Assembly: GCA_033723415.1 (NCBI GenBank)
Contig: JAWVXD010000003.1
Coordinates: 192,001-256,000 of the forward strand
Length of the DNA: 64,000 nt
Direction: 5' to 3'
Source: Sulfurospirillaceae bacterium
GTDB lineage: Bacteria; Campylobacterota; Campylobacteria; Campylobacterales; Sulfurospirillaceae
The notes below the pieces were generated by a model. It did no database searches and was not told the origin of the DNA. It saw nothing but the letters and a program-made list of their open reading frames with translations. Below, one piece after another: positions 1 to 25,567 of the stretch (the first letter of the stretch is position 1; the number at the start of each line of letters is the position of its first letter). The position numbers and the translations under genes were made by a program.

Positions 1-35
1 GGAGGTCGGGAGTTCAAGTCTCCCTCTTGACACCA
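1..35 (+). tRNA. 3' part of tRNA with CAT anticodon (Met or Ile2), 5' part outside window; attL side
   Basis: T-arm GGGAG-TTCAAGT-CTCCC and CCA end; the duplicate at 25521 shows the CTCATAA anticodon loop. Confidence 0.85.
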
Positions 36-65
36 CTCAAACCCCTAAAATACGGACTTCTAAAG

Positions 66-1331
66 CTAACTAAAATCAACTTTTTTAAAAGTGTCACCTA
101 AAGTGTCACCAAAAAGATTAATTTTCCTATCTGCATTGATCGCTTTATTTTCAACATATTTGGCATAATGTTTGATTAACATTTGTAGGTCACTATGCCC
201 CAGAATGTTGGCGATTTCCTGCATTGTAAAGGCTTTTGACTCAATCGCACTCACTGCAAAGGTATGGCGACAATTTTTGAGATCCCGATACTCGATACCT
301 AGATCAGAAAGTAGCTTATACCATTTTGTATTGTTTTTTATAGCTTTTCCATTTTTGACGATGAGCCTATCTCCTCTAATATCTTTGATGTCGGCGAGAT
401 GCGAGCCGTCTAAATTCGAAAACAACCAAAGAGATTTTTTCGAGTAAGCTTGTCTTACAAGTTCTTCAAAATATGGTAGAGTAGCATCAAAAATTGGAAT
501 TACTCTGTCTCGGTATTTTGTTTTTGTTTCCTTGACTTTACCCTTTGTTATGTTGCGTTGGATACTAATAGTTTGGTTTACAAAATCAATGTCTCTAAGT
601 TGCAAAGCTAAAATCTCCGCTGGACTCATTCCCTGATTGATGGCAATCCCTAAATAGTAATGAAGTAAATCTCCATATTTTTGTTGGTCTCGGCTTGCAG
701 ATAAAAGCCGTAAAACTTCATTTTTTTCAAAGGGCTTGATAGCATCGGTATTTCTATCTTTTTTTGCATCAAGTTTTATTTCATATGTGAAGTTTTTTAC
801 TACTCCATCATCTGCGGCGACTTCAAAAATCCCGTGTAAAATTCTCAAATATTTTAGCTTAGAATTTTTACTGAGATCTGCACCTGTTTGTGAATGAGTT
901 AGGCTGTTGAGCCAAAGTTTAATATCAAGTTTTGTAATCTTTTTGATATTAACATGTCCAAATTGTAATAAGATACGATTAGCACGATATTCAGCATTCT
1001 GATAATCGTAGTTTTGCTTATAATTGCTAAGAAAAATAGAACAGTAGTATCCAAAATTCTCACTTTTTTTGGCACTAAGTTGCATTTCTTCTTTTTTCCT
1101 TGCGAGCCAAACTGGTAGATATTTTTGCTCCATAAACTTTTGAGTTTTTTCGGTTTTTAGGACTTTTGTACTTTCTTCGATAGTTTTCGATTCTTGATTT
1201 TTAAAGAACACAGTATAACGTATATACCAGAATTTTCGATTTGAGCGATTTAAAATAATCGCCTGCATATCTTCCACATTTATCTCCTTTTGTGAATTTA
1301 AAGGAGATTTAGCAGATACAATTAACGACAT
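66..1331 (-). CDS. int: tyrosine recombinase/integrase (likely GTG start at 1277)
   Basis: GMSPAEILAL, NCRHTFA and LGH...HY motifs; next to att site. Confidence 0.92.
   Translation of the reverse strand: MSLIVSAKSPLNSQKEINVEDMQAIILNRSNRKFWYIRYTVFFKNQESKTIEESTKVLKTEKTQKFMEQKYLPVWLARKKEEMQLSAKKSENFGYYCSIFLSNYKQNYDYQNAEYRANRILLQFGHVNIKKITKLDIKLWLNSLTHSQTGADLSKNSKLKYLRILHGIFEVAADDGVVKNFTYEIKLDAKKDRNTDAIKPFEKNEVLRLLSASRDQQKYGDLLHYYLGIAINQGMSPAEILALQLRDIDFVNQTISIQRNITKGKVKETKTKYRDRVIPIFDATLPYFEELVRQAYSKKSLWLFSNLDGSHLADIKDIRGDRLIVKNGKAIKNNTKWYKLLSDLGIEYRDLKNCRHTFAVSAIESKAFTMQEIANILGHSDLQMLIKHYAKYVENKAINADRKINLFGDTLGDTFKKVDFS
91..109. repeat. putative integrase arm-type sites GTGTCACCTAAAGTGTCAC
   Basis: identical copy at 25416-25434 near the other end. 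Confidence 0.65.
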
Positions 1332-1346
1332 AATGCTACCATTTTT

Positions 1347-1577
1347 TTACTTTCGATTTAGAAGTTCTAGCACTTCGGGTTCAACTTCGTTACCAATAAA
1401 CCAATTTTCGGTCGCTTCAATGTTCCAAATTACAGCTTTTTTAGTTGCTGAACTGCTTGGAGCAGGGAAGTAATGTATGCCTTTAAAAAAATCAATTTCT
1501 TTTCTTTTTCTAAAAAAATCGACAGAGAGATCAAAAACAAGCGGTAAATTTTTCTCTTGTATGTATTTTTTTTCCAT
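1347..1577 (-). CDS. putative excisionase (Xis-like)
   Basis: 76 aa, directly upstream of int, F..GIHY...VIWNIE pattern typical of Xis-like proteins. Confidence 0.65.
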   Translation of the reverse strand: MEKKYIQEKNLPLVFDLSVDFFRKRKEIDFFKGIHYFPAPSSSATKKAVIWNIEATENWFIGNEVEPEVLELLNRK

Positions 1578-1585
1578 TTCTTCTC

Positions 1586-2866
1586 CTAGATTATTGGTAT
1601 ATCAATATTGTTATAAGACTTATCCGAATAACTAAACGACCTATCCGACAAGTATTCTCTTTCCTCAATACCCCTAAATTTGGACTTATCCGAAGAAAAA
1701 GGACTTATCTGACCTATCCGAGAGTTATTTTTATAGACTATTTCGACTTTAGGTTCTTTAATAAGTTCGTAAACATCTCTATTGTTTTTTTCTGGGATTT
1801 TTGTGGCTCTCCAGAGCTTGTCTTTACCAGTTTGGACAACTGTATTATTTTTATCTTTATTTACATACCCTTGGTCGATAAGATGCTTAATTATCTGGCT
1901 GTAAGTTGGTTTTTCGTTTTGATTTTTTAGAAAATCAATAATCTCGGCTTTGATTTCTTCGTGTTCTTCCGTTTCTTTTGCCCAGCTGAGATCTACTTTG
2001 TTGATGGTGTGGGTATCTTGATTGTATGTAAATGCAATTTCTGTCAGCTCGCCGACTCTTTTTTTGATAGGAGTGAAAATAAAAGTTCTCCTAAAATCAT
2101 TTTTTTTAAGTATAAATGCATTTGAAGTATCCTCTTCCCAAGCACTAGAACCTGCGTATGTAAGTTCCGCCAAATCTTTCTGAGGTTTGTTGGTGTGATG
2201 CAGAAATAGTACAGTTGCACCTTGCCGCCGTAGGCTTTTTAACATATTCATGGTCTCTGATACGTCACGATTTTTGTCTCGATCACCTTTAACAAAGTTT
2301 TTTATAGAGTCAAAGACGATAAAGGTGTTAGATAGATCTGTTTCGTAGAGAGTTGATACAATCGAAAGCATTTCTGATTTTTTAGCATTAGACTCGTGGA
2401 AGTATCTAAACTTTTTTCCAAATTTTATTTTTACCGAGTCAATTTCTCTTTCTTTAATCGTTGTTATGCCGTTGTCGCCGTCGAAATAAACTATTCTCTT
2501 CCCGTTTTTTGCAACATAATTTGCAATGCCTATCGCTGTCAAGCTTTTGCCCGATTCTGGTTTTGCGGCAATCATCGTAATTTCATTTTCGACGATCATA
2601 TTTGGGTATAAATAATCAAATTTTGCATTTTTGACTTTAACTGGATCAAGATCAAATTTATCAAGAAATTTTTCTATTTCATCGAAAGATTTTTTTTCTT
2701 TTATGTCGAGATTTTGTTTTAATTTTTCAATTTCGATGTCTATTGCTTCTAGCTCCTCGAAATTTATATATCCGCTAATTTTCAATTTTTCGAGTTGATT
2801 TATTTGTTGCTTTATTGCCTCTTTTTGTTGTACCTTTTTTTCGATTTCGATTATTATTTTATTCAT
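1586..2866 (-). CDS. AAA ATPase, RepA/SF4 helicase-like replication protein
   Basis: Walker A AKPESGKS, Walker B VFDS, LFLHHTNK, GSSAW motifs. Confidence 0.8.
   Translation of the reverse strand: MNKIIIEIEKKVQQKEAIKQQINQLEKLKISGYINFEELEAIDIEIEKLKQNLDIKEKKSFDEIEKFLDKFDLDPVKVKNAKFDYLYPNMIVENEITMIAAKPESGKSLTAIGIANYVAKNGKRIVYFDGDNGITTIKEREIDSVKIKFGKKFRYFHESNAKKSEMLSIVSTLYETDLSNTFIVFDSIKNFVKGDRDKNRDVSETMNMLKSLRRQGATVLFLHHTNKPQKDLAELTYAGSSAWEEDTSNAFILKKNDFRRTFIFTPIKKRVGELTEIAFTYNQDTHTINKVDLSWAKETEEHEEIKAEIIDFLKNQNEKPTYSQIIKHLIDQGYVNKDKNNTVVQTGKDKLWRATKIPEKNNRDVYELIKEPKVEIVYKNNSRIGQISPFSSDKSKFRGIEEREYLSDRSFSYSDKSYNNIDIPII
1618..1732. repeat. iteron block (GACYTATCYGA x5), inverted copy at 25238-25351
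   Basis: direct sequence comparison; both copies translate to QISPFSSDKS.FRGIEEREYLSD. Confidence 0.85.
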
Positions 2867-2879
2867 TTTTCTTTACCTT

Positions 2880-3416
2880 CTATGCAACAAAATTAAAAAG
2901 AGATGGCTGCGTATACTTGCATTCGTGCGCTATTTCAACTTTTTTTTCTTCAATTTTTTGCAAGTCGATTGTCGATTTGCAGGGTAGTCTTTTGCAACTT
3001 GTCCTGCCGTCGAAGTATTCTTCGATTTGAACTAAATTTATATCGATATAATTTTTGTATCTCGGATCGAAAAGATTTTTTAGTTCTGCTACGTAACGAT
3101 CAAGCAGCCATTTCGCCGCTTGCTCTGTGTCGCACAATTTCTTCGCCAAGCCGCCGCAATCCAGCATCGCGCGAAATATCCATTTTTTGATTTTCGCTCG
3201 CATTTTAGCTTCGATCAAGCAGGCGAAATCGTCGATCCGAAACGCCAGCCACTCCCAACTTTTATCAATTTTAAGAATTTCTCTTGCGAACTCTCTGCCA
3301 GCCCCTCCAGCGCCCCAAAACTGGTGCTCTTCTCGCATCGCAACATCTTGCAAAAACGTAATTGGATCTGTCCATTTCGCTGCAAACAACGAAGAATATA
3401 GCTCTTTTGCTTTCAT
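2880..3416 (-). CDS. hypothetical protein, first gene of rep-xis operon
   Basis: 178-aa ORF with AAGGAG RBS. Confidence 0.75.
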   Translation of the reverse strand: MKAKELYSSLFAAKWTDPITFLQDVAMREEHQFWGAGGAGREFAREILKIDKSWEWLAFRIDDFACLIEAKMRAKIKKWIFRAMLDCGGLAKKLCDTEQAAKWLLDRYVAELKNLFDPRYKNYIDINLVQIEEYFDGRTSCKRLPCKSTIDLQKIEEKKVEIAHECKYTQPSLFNFVA

Positions 3417-3542: not shown

Positions 3543-3704
3543 ACAAATTGAAGTTTTTGCTATTTTATTTATTCAATTTCAAAAGTTATTATATCAAAAT
3601 CAACCTTTTGTGTCAATATTTTGATGAATTTTTCACTATTTTTATATTTTATATTTTTTTGGTATCATTCTGTGTATATTTTAAACAAATTCAAAAGGAA
3701 CGTT

Positions 3705-4373
3705 ATGAACTCAGCTGAATTAATATTTGAATACATTAAAAAAAAATATAATTTTTCAAAAGATAAAGAAGTTGCGGATAAAATAGGAGTCAATTATAAT
3801 ACTCTCAAAAACTGGGTAGTAAGGGATTCCCCCAACTACCAGGTCATAATTGATTTTGCAAAAACAGAGAAAATTGATTTAAACGAATTATTTAACTCTA
3901 GTCTTGCAGCTCCTTCTTTAGAAAATTCACCCTCGATGATTGCTCTTCAAGAGGCTAATGCCGTGGCGGCAAATGAAAATGAAGTTGCTGATTATCTTAA
4001 AAAATTTACACTCAATAAGTTGCTGCAAAAAATCTTCAATAAAAAAGATGGTTTCTGGGGAAAGCTAACAGATATTATTTTTCCACTTACACAGAGACTT
4101 ATCGTTGTTACGTATAAAATCTTTAAGCACATTTCAAAAGATGAAAATACTGAGATTGATGATGCGAAAAGTTATTTAATTGATAAAATTCAAAATTTAA
4201 AGCTTTTAGAATTTGAACACATTGGAATTACACCATGGGATATTAAAAAACTTGTTTCAATAATTGAAAATATGAATGAGGATGAGTGTAGAATTTTAAT
4301 TGAGGACACAAATCGATCACTGGATCAAATAAGACAATATCTAGGTTTTATTGATCAAATAACAATGAAATAA
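3705..4373 (+). CDS. CI-like HTH repressor
   Basis: DKEVADKIGVNYNTLKNWVVRDS HTH; divergent from rep operon; RBS before 3705. Confidence 0.8.
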   Translation: MNSAELIFEYIKKKYNFSKDKEVADKIGVNYNTLKNWVVRDSPNYQVIIDFAKTEKIDLNELFNSSLAAPSLENSPSMIALQEANAVAANENEVADYLKKFTLNKLLQKIFNKKDGFWGKLTDIIFPLTQRLIVVTYKIFKHISKDENTEIDDAKSYLIDKIQNLKLLEFEHIGITPWDIKKLVSIIENMNEDECRILIEDTNRSLDQIRQYLGFIDQITMK

Positions 4374-4391
4374 GGGCTATTTTAGCCCTTT
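4372..4391. terminator. hairpin between convergent genes
   Basis: AAGGGCTA-TTT-TAGCCCTT. Confidence 0.55.
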
Positions 4392-4547
4392 GCGTTTACA
4401 GTAGCGATAAAACCCATTATATGTAATTTGTACATTATTTGGCATCTTGTGACTTAGTATTTTCCAAATGCTTCTCAAGCTCGCACCAGTTTTTACAAAT
4501 TCCTCGATCTCTTGTCTGTACAGATCCAATATACTTACTTTACTCAT
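4377..4547 (-). CDS. small HTH-like DNA-binding protein (56 aa)
   Basis: hand-translated MSKVSILDLYRQEIEEFVKTGASLRSIWKIL...; GGAGG RBS; below ORF-track cutoff. Confidence 0.65.
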   Translation of the reverse strand: MSKVSILDLYRQEIEEFVKTGASLRSIWKILSHKMPNNVQITYNGFYRYCKRKGLK

Positions 4548-4629
4548 TTTATTCCTCCATTTTCTTTCTTATCTATATTCATAATTCATCACTACTTGCA
4601 CAGTATTTAAACACTTCAAATTTACTTTA

Positions 4630-4770
4630 AATAAAGCTTATTTGAAGTAAATCTAAGCTTCAAAGATACTTTATTTAAGCTCTATTTGAAGTAAATCTAA
4701 AGCTTATTTAGAGCATATTTGAAGTAAATTTAAGCTCCAAAGATACTTTATTTAGAGCTTATATAAAGCT
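4630..4770. repeat. ~11-bp periodic degenerate tandem array
   Basis: TATTTGAAGTAAATYTAA at 4639, 4683, 4716; CAAAGATACTTTATTTA twice. Confidence 0.8.
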
Positions 4771-4948
4771 TTTCAAGGGCTCTTCTAATTTCATGTAAAT
4801 TGTGTAATTCCCAATCAACAAATCTTTTTTTATTGACCATCGAAACATCGTATTTTAGCCTTTCACATTCGTTTTCAAGCTCACTTATTTTCTTCAACAC
4901 CAGTTCGTAAATTTCTTGTGTAGCAGTTGGTAGGATTGGCTTTGTCAT
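4748..4948 (-). CDS. small coiled-coil hypothetical protein
   Basis: MTKPILP start with GGAGG RBS; ATGA overlap with upstream ORF. Confidence 0.6.
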   Translation of the reverse strand: MTKPILPTATQEIYELVLKKISELENECERLKYDVSMVNKKRFVDWELHNLHEIRRALEKLYISSK

Positions 4949-5052
4949 CTTCTGCCTCCAAAACTCGCTAGATATAATAGCATCGTAAAAAACCATTCAA
5001 AACATTTCCAAATTAAACCTATTCCAGTAAAAACAAGATCTATTAGCTTCAT
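4945..5052 (-). CDS. 35-aa hydrophobic peptide
   Basis: MKLIDLVFTGIGLIWKCFEWFFTMLLYLASFGGRR, GAGGTG RBS. Confidence 0.45.
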   Translation of the reverse strand: MKLIDLVFTGIGLIWKCFEWFFTMLLYLASFGGRR

Positions 5053-5129
5053 AATTCCCACCTCTTTATTGTAAATTAATTGTTGTTATCCATATTCATA
5101 ATTGTGTGGTATTGGATACAAAATTTATC

Positions 5130-5149
5130 TGGGGGCAACTTTGCCCCCG
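5130..5149 (-). terminator. terminator after pilus operon
   Basis: GGGGCAA/TTGCCCC hairpin. Confidence 0.55.
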
Positions 5150-5153
5150 ATAG

Positions 5154-5654
5154 TTACCAAGATATGATAAGATTTACCGAAGCGGTTAAGGTACCTGCAT
5201 CACAAGTATATTTTCCAGTACCGCTATCAAGGCTACAACCCGTTATAGGGTAAACATTAGGATATAGTGTTACCGTTTCGGTTGATCCAGTCGCCGTTCT
5301 GTTCCAAGGAGAGTTAGACATTACCAAATTTGTTTTTGATGCGTCTTGATAAAACTTCATCCCGTAGGTACTTCCAGTACCATTTGCCTGCATCGTATAT
5401 TGAGTTGCGTTTGTCGTTATAGAATATGATAATCCACTTGAGCAAGTCAGATCGAAAGTCAAAGGGTTCATCACTTCACCAGTGTTGCTCATAACCGTTG
5501 GAACAGTTCCAAGATCAAGTGTGGTACTCAAGTTTGCAATATTGCAACCTCCAGTATAAGTAATTGTTACTGGAACAGTTGTACTTGTAGAACCAGCAAA
5601 CGATACTGTTGTCAAACAAGCCATTAATATAGCTGTTAAAATACTTTTTTTCAT
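5154..5654 (-). CDS. Csu-type (spore coat U domain) pilin subunit
   Basis: signal peptide, paired Cys, C-terminal GTLTASVNLIISW strand. Confidence 0.8.
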   Translation of the reverse strand: MKKSILTAILMACLTTVSFAGSTSTTVPVTITYTGGCNIANLSTTLDLGTVPTVMSNTGEVMNPLTFDLTCSSGLSYSITTNATQYTMQANGTGSTYGMKFYQDASKTNLVMSNSPWNRTATGSTETVTLYPNVYPITGCSLDSGTGKYTCDAGTLTASVNLIISW

Positions 5655-5664
5655 CTGCACCTCC

Positions 5665-6138
5665 TTACCATGAAATTGTTACATTTAAAGTATCGCTGTA
5701 TGTTCCAGCTGGCGGCAATGGGTTATTATCTGCCATCGCAACTTTTGCATATACATTAATTGTATCGGTTGATCCAGTCGCCGTTCCAGTAATTGTATTT
5801 GCTGTCGTCGCTCCAAGCTCCGTGGTCATACCTGCATCACTGTAAAGTCTATAAGTAATATAATCTGTTCCACTGGCAGCTCTTCTTAATTCACCGTTTG
5901 GATTTCCTCCGCCATCAATTGTTGCTGTCCAATTTAGACCACTATTACAGATAATATCTACATTGAAGTTTGCAGTTGCATCGCTAACACCGCTAAAATC
6001 GAGTGTGAGAGCTGGACTGTTTGTAATGCTACAAGTTTGTTCGGCTGTACCGTTTACCGTTACAGTTCCACCAGTCGTTCCAGCTACTAAACTTATTGCT
6101 CCAAAGAAGAGCATCATAAGACATAAAACCTTTTTCAT
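5665..6138 (-). CDS. Csu-type (spore coat U domain) major pilin
   Basis: signal peptide, ITYRLYSD, PAGTYSDTLNVTISW signature. Confidence 0.88.
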   Translation of the reverse strand: MKKVLCLMMLFFGAISLVAGTTGGTVTVNGTAEQTCSITNSPALTLDFSGVSDATANFNVDIICNSGLNWTATIDGGGNPNGELRRAASGTDYITYRLYSDAGMTTELGATTANTITGTATGSTDTINVYAKVAMADNNPLPPAGTYSDTLNVTISW

Positions 6139-6159
6139 TGTTCCTCCTAAAGTCTAGAT

Positions 6160-6756
6160 TTATTTGCTTTCGCACCTATAAGCATAATTCCCGTGATTTG
6201 TTTCAATCGTTCCGCTTGCTCTTACATTGTCCACCTCCTTAATGTGGTTTGGTAAAACATACTCATTCATCTTCTTATCTGTGATAGATAAGATTTTATA
6301 GTGCATATTCCCACTATTTTTTATTTGAAGTGCATGACCTTTGCAGCTCAATTCAAGTTTTGGTTTTTGAAATTTCGGCAGGATAAAAACGGGAATAGAT
6401 AGAGTCTTTAATACTCTTGTTTGCCCTTCAAACTTATTGATATTCAGCTCTCTTAAGATAAGCCTATAAGATTTTTCTTGGGGTATTAAATTACTTCGTT
6501 TGTTATACACTTTTATCTTTTTTGGAGCTTGTAAGATTCTCGGATATACAACAACTTCATTAGTATTCTCCAACACTTCCTCTCCTTTTGTATCCTGAGT
6601 CCATTTTTTGATGTAAGCTTGATATTTACCGTTATCATCAGCTATGGTAAACTCTTTGTACTTCTTGCCGTATTGAATTTCTACTGGGATTGGATGCACC
6701 TGCAATGCAAAAGCTGCTATACTTGATAGTAGTGACACTAAAACTATTTTCTTCAT
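6160..6756 (-). CDS. fimbrial chaperone (CsuC/PapD-like)
   Basis: VVYPRI, EKSYRLILREL, LSIPVFI, IKNSGNMH motifs. Confidence 0.88.
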   Translation of the reverse strand: MKKIVLVSLLSSIAAFALQVHPIPVEIQYGKKYKEFTIADDNGKYQAYIKKWTQDTKGEEVLENTNEVVVYPRILQAPKKIKVYNKRSNLIPQEKSYRLILRELNINKFEGQTRVLKTLSIPVFILPKFQKPKLELSCKGHALQIKNSGNMHYKILSITDKKMNEYVLPNHIKEVDNVRASGTIETNHGNYAYRCESK

Positions 6757-8744
6757 TTTCTTTTCTCCTGACAGTTGATTTGAACCTCATTGGGTTCTTT
6801 ACCCTTATTCATAAAATTAACTTTGCAACTTGTATTTGGTATTTGAGGGATAAAATCCTCATATTTTCCTATAAAACCATCGATCCAGAACTCACCGTCA
6901 AAGCCAGTAAAATATTCTTTATCTCCGACTTTAAAAGTTTTTTCATTGTATGGCTTGCCGTTTACTTTGATGGTTCCAGTAATCGTTTTATAAAGAGATG
7001 GATCTAACCAATAACCTTGGCCACTTTTTAGAGTTACTGGCGTGCTTGTAAATTTATTCTTCACATCGGTAGTCCAGTAAGACGGTATTCTCTTTAATTC
7101 CTTATCCTCTAACAAATAAGAGCTTGCTGGATAGATGACATCACCAAAGCCACAATTAATGCCCTCTGCAACTACGCAACCGATAGAACCGCTTATACCA
7201 AGATCCCAAGTTGTCTGATCGCTGATTTTTTGAGCATTAAACCAAAAGTTATTTTGATATTTTGCTTTTAATGATGCTTTGTATGTATCGCTCGTATAGC
7301 CTAAATCACTGGTTTGTTTTGAATAACTGGCTTCATATCCAAAACCTTTATGCTCATCCTCAATTGGCATCGATGTAGCTATGTATTTGCTTTGTCCATC
7401 ATCTTTGCTGGTGTTTGCATAGGTAAGAGTGGTTCTTCTACTCCCAATATCAAAATTCCAAACAAACCTTGCACCTATATTATAAGTATGATCTGTATTG
7501 TTAAAATTTGCATTGATTGAGAGATTGAGATTTTTCCAAAGCATTTTAGAGTAACTTACCCCAAAGAGAGTCTGAGCATTTGTGTGAAATTGAAGAGAGA
7601 TATTACCAAACCCTCCAGATACTCCAGCGTTGATCCTAAAATCACTTTTTTTGTCTTTTAGTATCTGCATTGCACCGATGTAATAGTTTTCAGATGAATA
7701 ACTGTAATCTATTGCTGCATTTTTTTTATTATCGATTTGTAATCCGAGTTTACCAAGAGTAGAGAGATAATCGGCCGTAAGTGCAGTTCTGTTAGTATCA
7801 AAAGCAAACCCAACCGTTAAATTGTCTGTAATTCCCTTTCTATAAAACCCACTGTATTGCATTTTTTGCTTTTCGTCTTTACCGATGGCAAAATCATAAT
7901 CGATGCTATCTTTTGCAAGTATATTTTGGTTGTAAAGAAAAGGAACGTCTATCTCTCTTGCATTCCCAAAACTATCAGTCACAACTATTTTTATGTTGTT
8001 TGAAAAATGGCTTATTGGTAAATCTCTTAAGTTGTAGATACCTGCATTTAAGGTAAGCTTTTGGATTATTTGATCATTGTTGTAGATTTCTACCGTTGAT
8101 TGATCATTGATCACTAACTGATAATCAAAAGTTTTTCCATTTTGAACCATCGCTTTATTTGGAGAGATTTGAACTCCCTCAAGAGCATATCCAGCAGTAA
8201 GATAGCTTCCAGATACAGCATAGACACTTCCAAGCTTGAGTTTTTTTTTCTCAAATTCTTTTAAGATGAAGTAGTTTTCGAGTTTATTTTCTTGCTTATC
8301 CGACAATGTTCCTTGAGTGTAGAATAAAGTATTATAAGCAAAAACTCCACTTCCCAGAGTTGCACTTACACCAGTATCTCTTTGTGCAATAGAGTAATTT
8401 AAAAAAGCGGATGTGCTATCTTTAAAGTATTTCTTTTTTTGTTGCCTAAAAGATAGTACTTCTTTTGATAAACATTTTCTTTTAGGCTTTAAAAATAGCT
8501 TTTCATCACTTTCTTGATACACTCCTAGATCTGATAAGTTTTTAGACGAGCATTTGCCAAAGGTAATATTATCATCAGCTATATACTTGCCGTTATCCTG
8601 AGTAAATAAAAAAGTACCTATTTGTTCAGTTCCAACAAATAGATCTAAAACTTTTGGCTCTGCAAAAAGAAAAATGGGTAAAAAGAGAAAAGCCTTAGTT
8701 AGATGCTTCAAACATCGCCCCTCGATCATTAAAGAACCAATCAA
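6753..8744 (-). CDS. fimbrial usher (CsuD/PapC-like, compact; likely TTG start at 8711)
   Basis: AFLNYS, STVEIYNN, GIYNLRDLP, IVVTDSFG, YRKGITDNLTVG usher motifs. Confidence 0.85.
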   Translation of the reverse strand: MIGSLMIEGRCLKHLTKAFLFLPIFLFAEPKVLDLFVGTEQIGTFLFTQDNGKYIADDNITFGKCSSKNLSDLGVYQESDEKLFLKPKRKCLSKEVLSFRQQKKKYFKDSTSAFLNYSIAQRDTGVSATLGSGVFAYNTLFYTQGTLSDKQENKLENYFILKEFEKKKLKLGSVYAVSGSYLTAGYALEGVQISPNKAMVQNGKTFDYQLVINDQSTVEIYNNDQIIQKLTLNAGIYNLRDLPISHFSNNIKIVVTDSFGNAREIDVPFLYNQNILAKDSIDYDFAIGKDEKQKMQYSGFYRKGITDNLTVGFAFDTNRTALTADYLSTLGKLGLQIDNKKNAAIDYSYSSENYYIGAMQILKDKKSDFRINAGVSGGFGNISLQFHTNAQTLFGVSYSKMLWKNLNLSINANFNNTDHTYNIGARFVWNFDIGSRRTTLTYANTSKDDGQSKYIATSMPIEDEHKGFGYEASYSKQTSDLGYTSDTYKASLKAKYQNNFWFNAQKISDQTTWDLGISGSIGCVVAEGINCGFGDVIYPASSYLLEDKELKRIPSYWTTDVKNKFTSTPVTLKSGQGYWLDPSLYKTITGTIKVNGKPYNEKTFKVGDKEYFTGFDGEFWIDGFIGKYEDFIPQIPNTSCKVNFMNKGKEPNEVQINCQEKRK

Positions 8745-17953: not shown

Positions 17954-17955
17954 AA

Positions 17956-18405: not shown

Positions 18406-18418
18406 GAGGGAGTAAAAA

Positions 18419-19693
18419 ATGAGTATTATAATTCCAAAAGTAGCAACAAGGCAACACATAGGTTTTATAGGAACAACTGGTTCGGGAAAAACTCAAGGTA
18501 TGATGCAAATATTTGAGGCTTTTTTTCATTCAAAAAAAATCATAATCGATGTGAAAGGAGATTATGTTTCAACATTTAAAAAAGAAGATGATTTGATTTT
18601 TTGTCCGCTTGATGAACGAACTATCAAATGGAATATTTTTAACGATATTGAAACATACCAAGATGTAGCAAACATTGCCTTATCTTTAATTCCAGAAAAT
18701 CCAAAAGTTAGTGATCAATATTTTGATCGAGCTGCAAGAAGTGTTCTTGAGGGTGTTTTAATAGGCTTATCAAAAATGCAAAAACCAAGTAATAAAATGA
18801 TATGGGAAACTATTACATCGCCCAAAAATATTATAGAAATTATGAAAACAGATGATGAAGCAAAACAGAAAATGGAAGCTCACATCGATGACGGCTTAGA
18901 TAAACAAACTAGAGGTATCATAGGTACAATTTTGGCGAATGCTGGAGGGGCACTGGAAGCTCTTGCAAATATGGATGGTGATTTTTCTTTTAAAAAGTGG
19001 ACTCAAAATGAAATAAATAAAAAAAGCATCTTTTTACTGGGTGAAGAGAGAATTTTGGACTCTATGCTGCCGCTTTATAGATTAGTTGTAGAGATAGTTG
19101 CAGGAGAGCTTTTGTCAATGCTAGATGATGAGAATAGAGAATTGTTCTTTTGGTTAGATGAGTTACCAAGACTTAAAAAACTGCATAAGGTTATAGATCT
19201 TATGACATTAGCTCGTTCAAAGGGCGGTAAAGTTGTTTATTCCGTTCAAACAATAAAACAGTTGGAAGAGCAATACAAACGAGAGGGGATGGTCACTATC
19301 CTTGATACGACTAACACCAAATTTATTTATAGAACATCCGATGCTCAAGATTTAGAAAAAATCCTTGGACAGCAAGAGGTTTTAGAATATACTGAGTCTC
19401 GTTCTTGGGGGCCGAACGATATGAGAGACGGTGGTGGTCATACAAAACCTAAAAAAATAAAATATGTTGTTTTAGCCTCCGAAATACAAAATTTAAGACC
19501 TTTAGAGTTTTATGTAAAAAGCATCGCTCCATATGTCACAAAAGCACGATTAGAGTATATCGGAAGAGATCCAAAATGTTTAAAATTTGTCCCAAACATT
19601 AGAAAAATTAAAAAAGCAGGAGATTTTTATAAAAATCTTGTGAAGCTAACCCCAGTAAATAGTGAAAAGATTGATTTTGAGGAGTTCTTGTAA
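18419..19693 (+). CDS. type IV coupling protein ATPase domain (TraD/TrwB family)
   Basis: GTTGSGKT, IIDVKGDY, WNIF, FWLDELPRL, ARSKGG, SEIQNL motifs. Confidence 0.9.
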   Translation: MSIIIPKVATRQHIGFIGTTGSGKTQGMMQIFEAFFHSKKIIIDVKGDYVSTFKKEDDLIFCPLDERTIKWNIFNDIETYQDVANIALSLIPENPKVSDQYFDRAARSVLEGVLIGLSKMQKPSNKMIWETITSPKNIIEIMKTDDEAKQKMEAHIDDGLDKQTRGIIGTILANAGGALEALANMDGDFSFKKWTQNEINKKSIFLLGEERILDSMLPLYRLVVEIVAGELLSMLDDENRELFFWLDELPRLKKLHKVIDLMTLARSKGGKVVYSVQTIKQLEEQYKREGMVTILDTTNTKFIYRTSDAQDLEKILGQQEVLEYTESRSWGPNDMRDGGGHTKPKKIKYVVLASEIQNLRPLEFYVKSIAPYVTKARLEYIGRDPKCLKFVPNIRKIKKAGDFYKNLVKLTPVNSEKIDFEEFL

Positions 19694-19696
19694 TCG

Positions 19697-19719
19697 AGGA
19701 GAGTTTCGAACTCTCCTCC
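19697..19719. terminator. hairpin terminator
   Basis: GAGGAGAG...CTCTCCTC. Confidence 0.6.
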
Positions 19720-19883
19720 TAAATACCAATTAAACGATGGATTATCCCAACTAGCAGATCTTTAAAAAGAACCATTATCGCTTCGCTTTTAAAAGCAAAT
19801 AACCACATAAAAGCAACTGCCCATAAAATTTTCTTTGATAAAAGATTTCCTAAGAGCTCACCAAAAAATATTCTCATCAACAT
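19719..19883 (-). CDS. 54-aa hydrophobic protein
   Basis: MLMRIFFGELLGNLLSKKILWAVAFMWLF...; AAGGAG RBS. Confidence 0.55.
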   Translation of the reverse strand: MLMRIFFGELLGNLLSKKILWAVAFMWLFAFKSEAIMVLFKDLLVGIIHRLIGI

Positions 19884-19924
19884 AACTAACTCCTTTTTGG
19901 AAGATAAGAGAGAAGGCTTTAAAA

Positions 19925-20290
19925 TTAAATTGTTGTTAAATAATGTAATTTCCTCTTAACTTGTATGCCGTTTTCATCAATCATTTCTCTCATGTTTTGC
20001 TCTTCGATTTCAAGCCCTAAATTTTCCCCATGCGGACGGGCGTATCTAATCCCTTTTTTTGCTAACTCTTCGGCGAACATACTTGCAAGTTCTGTATTAA
20101 ACACATCTCTCCGATTTTCTGTTACCGCATGAAAATTAAAAAGACTATCCCCTAGTCCTATTTTTGTGTATAGACTTGTTATAGATTTAAGATTGTTCTT
20201 TTTCATAACTTTTTTTAACAACCTTTCGCTTTTTAAAACTGTATTTAAATCAAAATACTTAATATGTGTAATAATCTCTTTTGCTTTCAT
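19925..20290 (-). CDS. hypothetical protein
   Basis: 121-aa ORF with AAGGA RBS. Confidence 0.7.
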   Translation of the reverse strand: MKAKEIITHIKYFDLNTVLKSERLLKKVMKKNNLKSITSLYTKIGLGDSLFNFHAVTENRRDVFNTELASMFAEELAKKGIRYARPHGENLGLEIEEQNMREMIDENGIQVKRKLHYLTTI

Positions 20291-20508
20291 TTTTTATCCT
20301 TTTTAGTTTAAATTTTTGATATGTAGCTAATCTTGCTAACCATTTTTTTGCACTCTCTCTTTTTTGTTCTTTGCCTATATTTTTACTCCTTTCGTCATTC
20401 TCGATTTTTATAATATTGTCTCCTTTACCTATATTCATAAAACTATCAATCGGCCGTAGCCAACTTGATAGAACATTGCTTCTTTTCTTGTCGTATTTTG
20501 TATAATTA

Positions 20509-20566
20509 TAGCGAAATACGCTAATATTGTCAAGTGATTTTCGATATTTAATAGCGATTTCCGCTA
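20509..20566. promoter_or_regulatory. paired palindromic operators TAGCG-N5-CGCTA in a divergent promoter
   Basis: 20509-20523 and 20552-20566, next to TATAAT boxes on both strands. Confidence 0.6.
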
Positions 20567-20611
20567 ATTTGTGATATAATATAAAATTAATGAAGTTATT
20601 AAGGGAATAGT

Positions 20612-20812
20612 ATGTTAAATGATATGGAAATAATGAGGCTTTTTGGTATTCCAAATACTACCATGAGAGATTGGAAAAAAAAAGATAAAAGCGACTGGAG
20701 ATACAAGATTGCTATGTTTTTAAAGAGTCAAGATAAAGAGCGTGTAGAAGCATTTTTAAAGGCTTATGAGCTTGAGAAACTTTCTCCCTCAACACCCCAA
20801 AGTGCTCATTAG
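20612..20812 (+). CDS. small HTH protein
   Basis: EIMRLFGIPNTTMRDWKK. Confidence 0.75.
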   Translation: MLNDMEIMRLFGIPNTTMRDWKKKDKSDWRYKIAMFLKSQDKERVEAFLKAYELEKLSPSTPQSAH

Positions 20813-20850
20813 CTCAAAAATGCTAAAATACTTTAGTAAAGGAGTTAAAG

Positions 20851-20928
20851 ATGAATAGCTCAATATTATTAATGATCATTCTTGGTGTGGGTTCTATGGT
20901 TGCCGCTTATTTTGCATTAAAATCATGA
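20851..20928 (+). CDS. 25-aa hydrophobic peptide
   Basis: MNSSILLMIILGVGSMVAAYFALKS, AAGGAG RBS. Confidence 0.45.
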   Translation: MNSSILLMIILGVGSMVAAYFALKS

Positions 20929-21125
20929 TCTACCAAATATAAATATGTGTGAATATTCTATTATTCATTAATGGTGTCAAACGAATTGCTAAAATTGGCA
21001 CTAAGGATATGAAAAAAGTCGAGTCTGTAGAGTCTGTAAAACACCTTTACTTAAAGCATATCCATATTTTGCTACATCCTCAGCCATATCAACAATATCA
21101 TATGTATTCTCACTCATAAATACTC

Positions 21126-22358
21126 CTATTGTTTAAGAGATTTCAAAATTTCCATTGTTGGCATAGTTGGACTTGAATCTTGGGCTAATAATCCAGTATC
21201 AACTCGACTAAATAATGCTTGTAATATAATACTTTGGTTTTCTTTAGCTATTTCAGCACCTTCATTCATTAATGATAAATAAACATACGTTAATTGTTCT
21301 CTCTCCTCAGCATCTCGTTTTAGATGAAAAGAGCTAAAAGCTAATTTTGCAAATGAGCGGATCATAAATATGTATATTGTTATCATTGTGCCAAAAATAA
21401 CAACACCTTCAAGATTATTTAAAGCTAATTTTAACTCCTTGGCGTATAGCCATTGCGTGAAATAATGGCCAAAAATACACATTCCTCCTAACAGTAGGAT
21501 GGTCAATATCAGAAAATGCCAGTTACCTTGAGTTTGGTAAGTTTTTGCTCTTTGATTCCAATAGTCTGCAGGTTTTTTCAATCTAAGCAACTCTTGATAA
21601 GTATTTTCTAATTCTTGTGCTCGATTTTTTTGTTTTTCAATATAATCTTCAAATTCATTTTTAGTGTTTTCCATATAAGTATTGAATTCATTGTCGCGTT
21701 TTTTTTGAGTACGTTGTAAGAGTTTTGCATTGACTCTTTTGAATTTTTTATTATAGTCTATAATTTCAACTTGTGTATTTTCCCAAGTTTTTTCATATTT
21801 GTCTGTCTTTTTAATTAGATCATTTGTTTTATCATCAAGTCTATTTATAAAATTTTCAAAAGTTTTTTCTTCCCCTAGTCGTCTTGTTACAATATCAGAT
21901 TTATTTTGCATCTGATATTCATATGCTAATATAGCTCCTTTAAGATTATCATATTGGTTGATATCTAGGAGCCTTTTTTGCAATATTGCCATTAAAAATG
22001 CTAAACCCGTGTTTGGTGATAATTTACAATTCTCGATAAAATTAATAACATATGGATGTCCACTCCAAAGCCATTGCCTATCCAAATTGTTCATTTCATT
22101 TTGTATAACTTGCAATAAATTGATATATTGTACAGACTCTAGCGTATCTATTTTTGCTTCAAAATCATTAACTTTTTGAAGTATCATGGGTAAAGATTTT
22201 TTAGCATTAATAAATGGAGGAGGAAGCGTACCACCAGGAGCATTTTCTTCCAAAAAATCAATTTCATTTTGTAGAAAATCTTTAATTTCTGATACTGACT
22301 TATACTCAAAACCTTTCCCAGAATAATCTCGGAACGAAACTTGAAAACTATTTGCCAC
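21126..22358 (-). CDS. coiled-coil protein with two C-terminal TM segments (DUF6161-like)
   Basis: YW..RA, SSFHLKRDAEEREQLTYVYLSL, ALFSR.DTGLL. Confidence 0.7.
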   Translation of the reverse strand: MANSFQVSFRDYSGKGFEYKSVSEIKDFLQNEIDFLEENAPGGTLPPPFINAKKSLPMILQKVNDFEAKIDTLESVQYINLLQVIQNEMNNLDRQWLWSGHPYVINFIENCKLSPNTGLAFLMAILQKRLLDINQYDNLKGAILAYEYQMQNKSDIVTRRLGEEKTFENFINRLDDKTNDLIKKTDKYEKTWENTQVEIIDYNKKFKRVNAKLLQRTQKKRDNEFNTYMENTKNEFEDYIEKQKNRAQELENTYQELLRLKKPADYWNQRAKTYQTQGNWHFLILTILLLGGMCIFGHYFTQWLYAKELKLALNNLEGVVIFGTMITIYIFMIRSFAKLAFSSFHLKRDAEEREQLTYVYLSLMNEGAEIAKENQSIILQALFSRVDTGLLAQDSSPTMPTMEILKSLKQ

Positions 22359-22411
22359 GAATATTCCTTATTATTTTAAATATATTATATACCACCTGAA
22401 TCAAATTTTAA

Positions 22412-23086
22412 TTATTTATCAAATGCTATTTCTTTAATTCTATAACAATCCACCACATGATCTTTCAATTTATCATGTCTGTAATCAACATTGAGTACGT
22501 TGTCATATTTAAAACACTTCTCAAAATGTGCTTTGTTGTTATAATATATTCGATAGAGTGTTGATGGTATAACAACATGGTTTCTTATTGTATGATTTGG
22601 ATTATCATACTTTGCTATTGAGATGGAATTAATATAGCCTAGCTTTTGAGCAAGAGCTCTTCCATACCTTTCTACTTTGATCCAAGTCTTTTGATTCACC
22701 ATTGCGCTTTGAGGAACAATATTAGCCATAGTATAAGCTTTTCTCAGTGCTTTATGATCATAATCAAAATCTGCATCTGATACAATAAAGTGACCTCGGT
22801 TCCAATCTTTTCCATACCCTCTATAATCTTTGGATTTTGATCTATATTGTACCGGTATTGTCTTTTCACTATAAAACTTCATTCTTCTTTTGATATTGTT
22901 CTTATTGACTAAAGATCCATCTAATCTGACCCAACCAGACAAAGCTCCTTTATATTTATAGGAGTAACAGATATGATAGAGTTGTTTATCTATGATTTGA
23001 TCACACTTGGAGGTATTTACAAAATCGGATAGATTGGTTGCGTAGAGGGATAAAGTTAGTATTGATAGAAGAAGGAGTTTTTTCAT
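22412..23086 (-). CDS. secreted DNA/RNA non-specific endonuclease
   Basis: signal peptide; NRGH, NIVPQ..N...W..E His-Me motifs. Confidence 0.9.
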   Translation of the reverse strand: MKKLLLLSILTLSLYATNLSDFVNTSKCDQIIDKQLYHICYSYKYKGALSGWVRLDGSLVNKNNIKRRMKFYSEKTIPVQYRSKSKDYRGYGKDWNRGHFIVSDADFDYDHKALRKAYTMANIVPQSAMVNQKTWIKVERYGRALAQKLGYINSISIAKYDNPNHTIRNHVVIPSTLYRIYYNNKAHFEKCFKYDNVLNVDYRHDKLKDHVVDCYRIKEIAFDK

Positions 23087-23161
23087 AGATATCCTATGTA
23101 CTTCGTTTTTTATAATTTTACAATAATTTTTTACTATAAAATAGAAAATGTCAAAATTGAA

Positions 23162-24421
23162 TTACTTATTTGTTATTTCTATTGTATTTAAAAGTCTAAC
23201 TAGACTTCTTGCAACAGCATATGACAAATTGACTGGTACTGCATTTCCAATTTGCTTATATTGATTTGTTGTTGAACCTGCAAACTCCCAATCATCAGGG
23301 AAAGTTTGTATCCTTGCATATTCTCTAACTGTTAATGGTCTTGTCTCCTCAGGATGACATCTTTCTGTCTGTTTTTGTGCGGGAGCACAAGTTAATGTCA
23401 AGCTTGGCTCATCATATGACAATCTTCTGGCCATACCAGTTTTTCCGCCACCAAGAAAGTAACTTTTTTGCATATATTCTCTTTGCAAATCATCTGGAAG
23501 ATCTTTCCAATATCCACCTGCTGGAACTAAATCTAAGATCTCTTTTTTTCTTTTAGGATATTGTTGCCCCGCTGAATCTGGAACATCACTATTGTATAAA
23601 TCCCCTTTTTTGAGAGCATCTTTCATAGTCATTATTCTTTTATATGGAGATGGCCACCTAAAATCATTTGATGATATTTTTTCCATTATATCTTTTCTTA
23701 CTCCTACAAAAAATAATCTTTCTCTTTTTTGTGGAACTTGATAAAATATTGCTTTTAAAACATTAGGTTCAGTGATTAATTCATAGCCTATATCTTCAAT
23801 AACAGATTTTATTGATGCTAAAGTTCTTCCCTCATCATGTTTTAGTAATCCTCTTACATTTTCTGCCAAAAATATTGTAGGTTCACATTCTTTTACAGCT
23901 CTAGCAAATTCAAAAAACAGTGTACCTCTAGCATCTTCAAAACCTAGTTTTTTCCCTGCATAAGAAAAAGCCTGACAAGGAAAACCTCCAGATAAAATAT
24001 CTATTTTACCTTTGTATTTTGTAAAATCTAATTTTGAGACATCTCCCTCTACAACATTCCAAGACGGTCTATTCTGTCTTAATGTTTGACAAGCAAATTT
24101 GTCTATCTCATTTAACAAAATAGCATCTAAACCTGCTTTTTCAAAACCTAATGCCAAACCTCCAGCTCCTGCAAATAATTCTATTGATTTATATTTTCTC
24201 AATGGCTTAGTTGTGAGCTCTTCATCCCATAATGTATTAAACATCAGCTGTGCTTCTTCAAAATCACTTAATTGAGTTCTATGATATACTCTATAATTAT
24301 TTATAGGATGTCTAATGGGTTCTAATTTACCATTTTTATCCCATCTTCTTAAAGTTTCTTTCGAGACTGATAATATATCAGCTACTTCTGAAATATTGTA
24401 ATATTCTTTTTCCATTGTCAT
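23162..24421 (-). CDS. dcm: C5 cytosine methyltransferase with N-terminal MerR-like HTH (Eco47II/Sau96I-like)
   Basis: FAGAGG, GFPCQ, ENV, QKRER, RIQTFP motifs. Confidence 0.93.
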   Translation of the reverse strand: MTMEKEYYNISEVADILSVSKETLRRWDKNGKLEPIRHPINNYRVYHRTQLSDFEEAQLMFNTLWDEELTTKPLRKYKSIELFAGAGGLALGFEKAGLDAILLNEIDKFACQTLRQNRPSWNVVEGDVSKLDFTKYKGKIDILSGGFPCQAFSYAGKKLGFEDARGTLFFEFARAVKECEPTIFLAENVRGLLKHDEGRTLASIKSVIEDIGYELITEPNVLKAIFYQVPQKRERLFFVGVRKDIMEKISSNDFRWPSPYKRIMTMKDALKKGDLYNSDVPDSAGQQYPKRKKEILDLVPAGGYWKDLPDDLQREYMQKSYFLGGGKTGMARRLSYDEPSLTLTCAPAQKQTERCHPEETRPLTVREYARIQTFPDDWEFAGSTTNQYKQIGNAVPVNLSYAVARSLVRLLNTIEITNK

Positions 24422-24534
24422 AATTAAACCTTATTCAACCTTATTTATGGTTATTATATCTAAAATATTATTAAACTTACCCTATATTTAAACTTGCTAT
24501 GATTACAAATCAATCAAATTTTAGGTAGGTTAAT

Positions 24535-25224
24535 ATGTCGTATTTTAAAAATGATGATGCACTTTCAAAAATAATAAAAAAGATTTATGATGCTTATGTA
24601 GCTGCTAAATCTTCTAATGATATTCATAGTAATGTCATTGATCCATTTTCAGCTTTATTGGAAGCAAGTTTTAATGAAATGACTTATGATGAGTGGATTG
24701 TAGCAGAAGAGTCTAGGCAAGTACAAAAAACATTGCAAAATGCAATAGGAAGTTTTCACGAAGAGATAATTGGTGAAATTAAGGGTTTTGAGAATTTAAA
24801 AGTTGGTGAGATTATAGATATTGTTTCTAAAGATAAAAAAATCATTGCAGAGATTAAAAATAAATGGAATACTACAAAGGGAAATCATAAAGTAGCAATA
24901 TATGATGATATAGCATCAGTATTAACTACTATTGGAGATGGATTTACTGGATACTATGTAGAAATAGTTCCTAAAAAATCAACTCAATATAATAAAGAAT
25001 TTACTCCTTCTGACAATAAAACTCACTCACAAAGAACAGCAAACTCTAAAATTAGAGTAATTGATGGCAAAAGCTTTTACGCAATGATAACTGGTGATGA
25101 AAATGCCGTATTTAAAATTTATAATGAAATAGTAGCAGAACTTGAAAAGCTTGGTTTAAATACAGAGGATGACTTTAAAAAACTTTTAACAAAAGCTTAT
25201 GGAGAACCAACTCAACAATCTTAA
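24535..25224 (+). CDS. type II restriction endonuclease, Eco47II-like
   Basis: RQVQKTLQNAIGSFHE, D...EIKNKWNT; divergent from MTase. Confidence 0.85.
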   Translation: MSYFKNDDALSKIIKKIYDAYVAAKSSNDIHSNVIDPFSALLEASFNEMTYDEWIVAEESRQVQKTLQNAIGSFHEEIIGEIKGFENLKVGEIIDIVSKDKKIIAEIKNKWNTTKGNHKVAIYDDIASVLTTIGDGFTGYYVEIVPKKSTQYNKEFTPSDNKTHSQRTANSKIRVIDGKSFYAMITGDENAVFKIYNEIVAELEKLGLNTEDDFKKLLTKAYGEPTQQS

Positions 25225-25237
25225 TCATCTTCCGTTA

Positions 25238-25351
25238 AAAAATAACCCTCGGATAAGTCAGATAAGTCCTTTTTCTTCGGATAAGTCCAATTTTAGGGGT
25301 ATTGAGGAAAGAGAATACTTGTCGGATAGTCGATCTAGTTTTCGGATAAGT
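25238..25351. repeat. inverted copy of the iteron block at 1618-1732
   Basis: near-identical reverse complement. Confidence 0.85.
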
Positions 25352-25519
25352 TGCCAAAGTTCAAAACTTGCCAAATTGACTATATATCTAAAAAACGGAT
25401 ATCTGACACAAAAAAGTGTCACCTAAAGTGTCACTAAAATCATCAAAATAAGCATAAAATAGCGTTAATTGTATATGGCTAAATCCCCATAATTAAGTAT
25501 TTAAGGGTTTTTGGACTTC

Positions 25520-25567
25520 TCTCATAAGCCGGAGGTCGGGAGTTCAAGTCTCCCTCTTGACACCACT
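25520..25567 (+). repeat. attR: duplicated tRNA 3' half from the anticodon loop
   Basis: 25531-25567 identical to 1-37; no tRNA 5' half upstream. Confidence 0.92.

Follow-up and report, generated by a model that had tools for sequence, protein, structure and literature searches.

The first 25,567 nucleotides of a 64,000-nucleotide stretch of Sulfurospirillaceae bacterium DNA (GCA_033723415.1, contig JAWVXD010000003.1, positions 192,001 to 256,000; the whole stretch is called the window) form an intact integrative element, inserted in a tRNA-Met gene of a host whose genome (G000) is 100% complete. The element, from marine sulfur-cycling bacteria, joins a divergent relaxase, an oriT candidate and a split TraD-type coupling protein to a five-gene envelope operon, which encodes a 528-amino-acid (aa) secreted protein, lipoproteins of 355 and 245 aa, a predicted beta-barrel and a 118-aa protein. 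It can tentatively be placed, with a likelihood just short of even, in a family of tRNA-targeting integrative mobilisable elements (IMEs) of Campylobacterales that supply relaxosome, coupling protein and cell-contact kit themselves and borrow the mating channel. An earlier note on this DNA had listed att repeats, an integrase, a relaxase, an oriT candidate, a TraD-like ATPase, a pilus and orphan envelope genes, all of which were confirmed; its xis gene is recognised by position only, and its rep gene encodes an AAA_25 ATPase.

To our knowledge, relaxase-based conjugation is held to need a type IV secretion system (T4SS) powered by VirB4, and annotation tools rely on that rule. Such tools miss the present family, since its relaxase lies under the profile cut-offs and its envelope genes are nameless. 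If these elements transfer by themselves, the rule would be broken and a new trans-envelope DNA conduit would exist. If a helper is needed, the design would still be new, with a borrowed channel to which the element adds a contact apparatus unrelated to it and a chaperone-usher pilus that it has domesticated. A literature search, mainly of freely readable texts, found no description of this element family.

Relaxase, coupling protein and type IV secretion genes

The 592-aa open reading frame (ORF) had no Pfam or NCBIfam match. It is accepted as a divergent relaxase because all 25 aligned homologs, drawn from the 30 found, keep Tyr17 and the HUH motif (H107..N114-x-H116-x-H118) unchanged, because its N-terminal alpha/beta domain is modelled with high confidence and is matched by R1162 MobA in Foldseek (2ns6, probability 0.98 but E 0.023, a weak match), and because one homolog matches PF03432 below the cut-off (E 0.002, 18.9 bits against 24.6). 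The VIA search with the same model was uninformative, its list being filled by coiled coils. Between the divergent mobC and ribbon-helix-helix (RHH) genes, all 10 aligned intergenic regions keep the inverted repeat of the oriT candidate. At the sequence level, the relaxase and oriT of an IME are thus present as a motif, a hint of fold and a conserved intergenic site.

The ATPase half of the coupling protein matches PF10412 at E 1.5e-74, and the 149-aa membrane ORF upstream of it matches the N-terminus of a one-piece coupling protein. Both the TrwB_AAD ATPase and its membrane anchor are therefore found, the anchor lying on an adjacent ORF that is fused in the homolog. The coupling protein is the sole Walker-A ATPase of at least 200 aa common to the spanned elements, the AAA ATPase belonging to the replication module. 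The host genome encodes one coupling protein only.

Profile searches found neither VirB4 nor VirB10 (PF03743) in the element or in the complete host genome, as the earlier note had stated for the element, and 8 F-type Tra proteins from a related bacterium gave no tblastn match in that genome. The Pfam/NCBIfam scans covered 30 element ORFs and named the integrase, the AAA_25 ATPase, two helix-turn-helix (HTH) regulators, SCPU pilin, usher, RHH, the TraD-type ATPase and a type II restriction-modification (RM) pair. VirB6, VirB8 and VirB9 were absent from these scans, no genome-wide search being aimed at them. No family of T4SS core-complex or inner-membrane subunits was matched by the 30 proteins, and structural comparison of the envelope set covered the 528-aa protein only. 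Each envelope gene encodes at most one hydrophobic segment, so that a VirB6-like channel protein is not among them. TraN, TraG and TraH had no Pfam/NCBIfam match in the element, and none was found to Campylobacterota TraH or to the tra genes of plasmid pHRV44. The VirB4/TraC ATPase of a canonical integrative and conjugative element (ICE) was found neither in the window element nor in G851, a related element.

The envelope operon and its linkage to the relaxase

Relaxase-based scans yielded 12 loci, two of which (L002 and L011) are one contig. The 528-aa gene is present in each of the six that reach far enough past the relaxase; the remaining six stop short of it. The complete envelope block stands in order behind the relaxase in all five elements that span it (window, L012, L013, L014 and G851), and this arrangement is kept down to about 30% identity. 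Additionally, L009 holds four envelope genes up to its contig end, and in the metagenome-assembled genome (MAG) G602 a separate contig has three of them. Linkage of relaxase and 528-aa homolog is also seen in Hydrogenimonas thermophila, at a distance of six locus-tag steps (RZR97_02690 and RZR97_02720), and 528-aa homologs reach another phylum (Thermodesulfatator atlanticus, 53%). Against this linkage stands G163, whose 25%-identical relaxase has a one-piece coupling protein and no envelope genes upstream; its contig ends just after. This minimal relative (L019, 11696-18297) comprises cI-like, xis-like, rep-like and mobC genes, the relaxase and the one-piece coupling protein.

The G851 element measures 28.7 kb and lies at a tRNA-Leu gene with a 12-bp repeat and a different integrase at its other end. 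Its relaxase is frameshifted into three pieces, and ArdC and type IA topoisomerase genes are inserted between relaxase and 528-aa gene (L040, 9209-13332). Both G000 and G851 thus hold att-bounded elements in hosts without a detectable T4SS, as judged by VirB4 and VirB10. The element family is rare: the 528-aa profile had no match in 400 genomes of the phylum, 60 of the family and 21 of the class besides the host, and matched 3 of 351 genomes in the family of G602. Relaxase and 528-aa protein were both absent from the plasmid collection, and the viral contigs were likewise without a match.

The 528-aa protein, with 28 homologs including the query, is modelled confidently from residue 88 onward (pTM 0.73). 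The earlier note had proposed structure prediction and Foldseek comparison of the orphans; the 528-aa protein alone was modelled, and its body had no fold match in Foldseek or VIA (PDB). The best VIA score (Z 7.3) concerned the C-terminal helices only, and no Foldseek match was obtained at E 0.001, pore formers included. The N-terminal segment of residues 19-94, which is disordered in the monomer model, has a length of exactly 76 residues in 30 of 31 homologs, a fragment having been excluded. One face of this segment consists of 63% S/T/G/N/A, 27% D/E, 2% K/R and 2% hydrophobic residues (90% small or acidic), and the other of 37% K/R and 30% hydrophobic residues (67% basic or hydrophobic). This alternation, together with the fixed length, gives the pattern of a long beta-barrel strand, and the segment would be a long beta-strand that pairs only on assembly. 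The middle part of the protein is highly variable across homologs.

The two paralogous lipoproteins have a Cys pair in common. No look-alike of the 355-aa lipoprotein was found in an Atlas search; the barrel had no Pfam or PDB match, and the profiles of barrel and 245-aa lipoprotein found nothing in the PDB. Lipoproteins and barrel diverge fastest (33-34% identity, nonsynonymous divergence dN 0.66-0.73), compared to 63-64% identity for TraD and the 528-aa protein. In all envelope and pilus genes tested dN is well below synonymous divergence (dS), with dN/dS of about 0.07-0.4 over all genes tested. These ratios indicate that all of them are under purifying selection.

Two element-specific motifs

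From one shared upstream motif the earlier note had argued that the pilus, envelope and mob operons form one regulon and are not random cargo. Two motifs were found in place of one, m2 (TTATGAATAT) and a 17-mer (m17); the regulon itself is supported by their conservation at corresponding positions in relatives, by dN below dS and by the orphan genes being a fixed core. Nine copies of m2 lie in the element, where 0.26 would be expected, and the remaining 2.4 Mb have 24. Eight of the 9 element copies, but 2 of the 24 elsewhere in the genome, lie 24-37 nt ahead of a ribosome-binding site with its ATG; the corresponding P of 1e-11 overstates the significance, as the motif was chosen after the sites were seen. 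This spacing suggests that m2 is the -10 region of promoters. It recurs ahead of equivalent genes in relatives, and in G851 before usher and chaperone alike.

The 17-mer has 10 copies in the element against a shuffle mean of 0.03, and occurs nowhere else in the host genome at one mismatch. It is present in 7 of the 12 related loci scanned, with five copies in G851, and is probably an operator. One copy lies inside the chaperone gene at an identical codon position in window and G851, and the variable base of the motif tracks the element, being A in 10 of 10 window copies and G in 5 of 5 G851 copies. This intragenic copy, co-varying with its element, is the best evidence that the pilus is under the element's control. 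A CRISPR-like repeat or a cassette recombination site was rejected on the irregular spacing (32-407 nt in the cluster) and the copies within coding sequence.

Small membrane ORFs on the + strand stand behind 17-mer sites (9144-9449, 9577-9729 and 9744-9878), and the one of 50 aa is found again behind a 17-mer in G851; judged from its first codons, L012 and L014 have it too. They are candidate exclusion or toxin-antitoxin (TA) genes.

The pilus as an optional part

An SCPU pilin, a chaperone and an usher, the components of archaic chaperone-usher pili, are all found, the chaperone being assigned by context and a weak homolog. It had no Pfam or PDB match, and its homolog adjoins an usher in L035 (E 2e-9). 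The two pilins are paralogs of each other. A two-domain tip adhesin (CsuE-like) is a feature of archaic chaperone-usher pili; no separate ORF of CsuE size was found in the four-gene pilus operon of the window or in G851. Related ushers are rare in the order, with 3 weak matches in 300 other genomes.

Of the four elements that span the region between the 118-aa gene and cI, the window element and G851 have the pilus, and L013 and L014 do not. L014 and G851 have 92% DNA identity, and L014 lacks exactly the 3.6-kb pilus operon; at the place of the usher promoter it retains an m2 site close to consensus, an indication that the pilus was lost. The pilus genes of window and G851 are 50-67% identical with dS of 1.3-1.8, close to the core genes at 1.5-2.3 (near saturation and therefore rough). 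From these comparisons the pilus appears as an old, dispensable part of the element. Being absent from 21.7 kb of L013 and deleted in L014, it cannot be the obligatory transfer organelle. Recent random cargo is also rejected on the G851 comparison, in which the pilus is conserved, the 17-mer site is shared and dN is below dS. The earlier note had given the pilus the leading place and had named related elements without pilus and lipoprotein genes as a ground for refutation. The lipoproteins are in all five spanning elements; the pilus is missing in L013 and L014.

Proposed routes of transfer

A helper-dependent route may be set out in four steps. Repression at the 17-mer sites by the cI-like protein or the 73-aa HTH regulator (HTH73) would be relieved and the m2 promoters would fire together, after which the element would excise. 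The relaxase would then nick oriT, and the split TraD would hand the relaxase-DNA complex to the T4SS of a transient co-resident conjugative element, probably of F-type. In the fourth step, the 76-residue beta-segment would let the 528-aa protein assemble into a fibre on the surface or across the envelope, to which the two lipoproteins and the barrel would give anchorage; with the pilus where present, this fibre would hold donor and recipient together. Such a contact kit would favour the element's own transfer and would work like the mating subunits of SGI1 with unrelated proteins.

This helper-dependent reading is preferred because the element contains no VirB4, VirB10 or other Tra homolog and no VirB6-like channel protein. 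An F-type helper is favoured since G602 holds both element parts and F-type tra genes in one genome, and since the nearest relative of the coupling module is on pHRV44 (Nitrosophilus labii, NZ_AP022827.1). This plasmid, the closest plasmid match of the coupling protein, has a full F-type tra set and the same order of RHH, membrane half and ATPase half, at 45, 36 and 55% identity. The fast divergence of lipoproteins and barrel would also fit contact proteins.

Several observations weigh against a borrowed channel. No envelope protein resembles a T4SS subunit, unlike TraN, TraG and TraH of SGI1. A T4SS was found in one (G602) of the six genomes with element parts or a related relaxase, and in neither G000 (100% complete) nor G851 (a single 2.32-Mb contig); the assemblies of G601, G904 and G163 are fragmented. 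At the tra promoters of pHRV44 and of the G602 tra contigs m2 was not found, and SGI1-style control by a helper's activator is therefore not seen; the true helper may be an element other than these two F-type systems. The second coupling protein of pHRV44 lies beside an HD-domain protein, and the module related to that of the window element may not be the one that serves its T4SS. Moreover, a 76-residue segment of constant length with an acidic face would be more in keeping with a tube than with an adhesin.

In a rival reading that we consider less probable, the elements are self-transmissible through a new channel without VirB4 and the coupling protein is the only pump. The 76-residue strands of a 528-aa oligomer would form a long beta-barrel with a small/acidic lumen conducting the relaxase-ssDNA (a fully extended strand is calculated at about 20-25 nm). 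This conduit would span the periplasm or reach the recipient, with lipoproteins and barrel anchoring it in the outer membrane, and an ExbB/ExbD-type proton motor, element-encoded in one distant lineage and perhaps the host's elsewhere, would replace VirB4 for assembly. The outcome, unlikely as it stands, would be relaxase/TraD conjugation free of a T4SS in a Gram-negative phylum, with a beta-barrel tube of new fold and the optional pilus as grappling organ. In its favour are the envelope operon fixed behind the relaxase in five of five spanning elements and linked to it also in H. thermophila, the constant length, two-faced composition and monomer disorder of the segment, the regulon common to envelope and mob genes, the ArdC and topoisomerase genes within the G851 element and the 528-aa homologs in another phylum. 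No helper T4SS was found in the two best-assembled hosts, nor in five of the six genomes checked, three of them fragmented; however, IMEs often occur without their helper. We know of no precedent for a relaxase-based channel without VirB4, every such transfer system known to us having that ATPase, and no inner-membrane channel protein is encoded. The alternating S/T-rich pattern equally fits an adhesive fibre or a pore-forming stem.

The motor is suggested by the MAG G904, in which an m2-regulated cluster (L042, C409 643-4762) holds a barrel, two lipoproteins, ExbB-like and ExbD-like proteins and, after these, a shorter stalk-bearing protein. G904, a fragmented MAG, also has m2-preceded coupling proteins and gave no VirB4 or VirB10 match. 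The link to the window family rests on the N-terminal segment, the barrel (E 1e-12) and m2. However, the stalk protein matches the 528-aa family over the low-complexity N-terminal 90 residues only (hhalign P 76), the contigs are not joined, no relaxase of the window family was found and the window element has no ExbB or ExbD genes. A second copy of the stalk protein is on another contig of G904, and a third contig carries two m2-preceded coupling proteins and a ParA-like gene (further loci L046 and L055).

A still more doubtful view takes the envelope operon for a weapon or exclusion module, co-induced in an ordinary IME and no part of the transfer machinery. The 528-aa protein would then be a secreted beta-pore former acting against neighbouring bacteria, the two lipoproteins encoded directly downstream would be its immunity proteins, and the element would kill or exclude competitors. 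A secreted protein followed by two paralogous, fast-evolving lipoproteins resembles the effector-immunity gene order, long S/T-alternating strands occur in the stems of pore formers, and the middle region of the 528-aa protein is highly variable. On the other hand, its 76-residue segment has no hydrophobic membrane-spanning stretch, its gene shares an operon with genes linked to the relaxase, the five spanning elements showed no arrays of orphan immunity genes, and no pore-former fold was matched in the PDB, although this last is weak evidence. That the element is a decayed ICE which has lost its T4SS, the rest being leftovers or unrelated cargo, is very improbable. The frameshifted relaxase of G851, the varying cargo around the core and the loss of the pilus from some copies would agree with decay; yet the layout without a T4SS is shared by elements whose proteins are 50-65% apart and which use two tRNA targets and different integrases, dN/dS is low in all genes tested and both motifs are conserved. 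On sequence grounds decay appears already largely refuted. Of the alternatives posed in the earlier note, an IME with its own adhesion kit and a non-canonical transfer system both stand, and the puzzle has moved from the pilus to the five-gene envelope operon.

Comparison with known systems

According to PMC5389848 and PMC5704250, SGI1 is an IME that brings its own mating subunits, co-induced for transfer, and is not known to be self-transmissible. The SGI1 family and GISul2 resemble the window element in being integrated, in not being known to transfer by themselves and in having envelope subunits of their own that are co-induced (PMC5389848; PMC5704250). The differences are that SGI1 encodes TraN, TraG and TraH, which are homologous to subunits of the helper and are induced by its AcaCD, whereas the envelope proteins of the window element are without T4SS homology, its HUH relaxase and coupling protein are its own, and m2, its promoter motif, was not found at the tra promoters of either F-type system examined. 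By its gene content the element would thus fall outside SGI1 (no TraN/G/H homologs) and the canonical ICEs (no VirB4), and within the IMEs.

IMEs bearing coupling proteins are known, according to a table legend in PMC5704250. Those with a relaxase and VirD4/TcpA are alike in having integrase, relaxase, oriT and coupling protein and no mating-pair apparatus; the window element adds the fixed five-gene envelope operon and a chaperone-usher pilus in its regulon, and its coupling protein is split and its relaxase scores under all Pfam/NCBIfam cut-offs. Plasmid pHRV44 shares the coupling module and a related non-specific nuclease, which there lies near that module, but differs in having TraL/E/K/B/V/C/H/N/G/F/U and in lacking the 17-mer and any match to the window relaxase, envelope or pilus genes. 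MOB-suite types this 102-kb plasmid, with its full F-type tra set and its two coupling proteins, as 'non-mobilizable'; the HD-domain protein next to its second coupling protein may be an unrecognised relaxase. The archaic Csu/CupE pili have SCPU pilins, a chaperone-like protein and an usher in common with the window pilus, which differs in its short usher (about 660 aa, where distant chromosomal relatives have open frames of 782 and 795 aa), in the want of a separate tip-adhesin gene and in its place within a mobile element's regulon.

Boundaries, backbone and cargo

The coordinates of all features are collected in Table 1. A repeat search found identical repeats at 1-37 and 25531-25567 of the window; the full att repeat is 48 bp, its left copy beginning 11 nt left of the window, and is the 3' part of the tRNA-Met(CAT) gene at -41..35. 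An integrase (PF00589) and site-specific att repeats, as expected of an integrative element, are thus both present. Arm-site-like repeats lie at 87-121 and 25412-25458. In contigs of one sequencing run, possibly the source of this DNA, depth was 77.3 over the element and 76.5 over the flank, which indicates a single integrated copy. No excision joint was found among these contigs, which drop rare forms, the stretch being compared without attL.

Table 1. Features of the element in the window
Feature	Position	Strand	Basis or remark
attL, 3' part of tRNA-Met(CAT)	1..37	+	full 48-bp repeat starts 11 nt before window
Tyrosine integrase	66..1331	-	PF00589 E 5e-13
xis-like small protein	1347..1577	-	named by position alone; no family match
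AAA_25 helicase-like ATPase ('Rep'), probable replication function	1586..2866	-	E 3e-14; 50% identity in G851
178-aa orphan, candidate regulator	2880..3416	-	31 homologs
cI-like repressor	3621..4373	+	PF07022 E 7e-8
56-aa DUF5338-like protein behind m2 site	4377..4547	-	E 4e-5, below cut-off
Nine m2 sites, promoter-like	4575..20440: 4575, 5092, 8954, 10870, 13009, 15261, 17418, 20431; 17618	- (first eight); + (17618)	TTATGAATAT
Two single-domain pilins, archaic SCPU type	5154..6138	-	PF05229 E 3e-22; PDB 8cio E 2e-10
Putative pilus chaperone, internal 17-mer at 6483-6499	6160..6756	-	context and weak homolog
Usher, ~660 aa, short	6753..8744	-	PF00577 E 3e-9
73-aa Xre/HTH regulator (HTH73), core	8695..8916	-	PF01381; matches in L013, L014, G851
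Nine of ten 17-mer copies, operator-like	8977..11136		flank m2 sites and small + strand membrane ORFs
118-aa orphan, N-terminally anchored or exported, core	9911..10267	-	relatives
Predicted small outer-membrane beta-barrel, core	10271..10837	-	signal peptide, C-terminal Y-x-F; barrel fold inferred
Lipoprotein, 245 aa, core, paralog of 355-aa lipoprotein	11167..11904	-	lipobox; hhalign P 95, E 2.5e-8
Lipoprotein, 355 aa, core	11914..12981	-	lipobox
528-aa secreted protein, most conserved envelope gene	13021..14607	-	homolog alignment, model
Two small hydrophilic ORFs between relaxase and 528-aa gene	14618..15280	-	gene order conserved
Divergent HUH relaxase, 592 aa, MOBP/MOBQ-like fold	15207..16985	-	conserved motifs, model
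RHH relaxosome accessory, MobC-like	16978..17391	-	PF01402 E 7e-5
oriT candidate: short inverted repeat and conserved flank	17470..17518		intergenic conservation
RHH protein and split TraD-type coupling protein	17630..19693	+	membrane half 17956-18405, ATPase half 18419-19693
Variable cargo: small HTH, DUF6161, non-specific nuclease, C5 methyltransferase, Eco47II-type endonuclease	19925..25224		Pfam/NCBIfam
attR, 48 bp	25520..25567	+	copy of tRNA-Met 3' part

Among the backbone genes, the ORF at the xis-like position in L013 matches HTH_17 at E 8e-4. Weakly related ORFs stand at the place of the 178-aa ORF in L013 and G851 (HMM, E 5e-4 to 4e-3 in a two-sequence test); PDB and Pfam profiles gave no support to a sigma-region-2 factor reading m2, and this role is a guess. 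Three A+T-rich direct repeats of about 50 nt each, together with inverted repeats that overlap, lie at 4613-4768 between the 56-aa and 82-aa ORFs and are a candidate replication origin of the excised form. A 103-nt inverted copy (92%) of the 3' part of the AAA ATPase gene (1630-1732) is found just inside attR (25238-25340), and is possibly the scar of an earlier rearrangement or tandem insertion.

The cargo has a low GC of 0.30 over 21126-25224, and its content varies between relatives. Its nuclease is predicted to be secreted, the C5 methyltransferase is fused to a MerR-HTH, and the RM pair is of type II. According to PMC5704250, a type II RM or TA module may act in addiction. The cargo of L013 (2-5307) comprises a 1250-aa P-loop ATPase, an HNH-like protein and a nucleotidyltransferase-like ORF, and resembles a defence cluster by eye.

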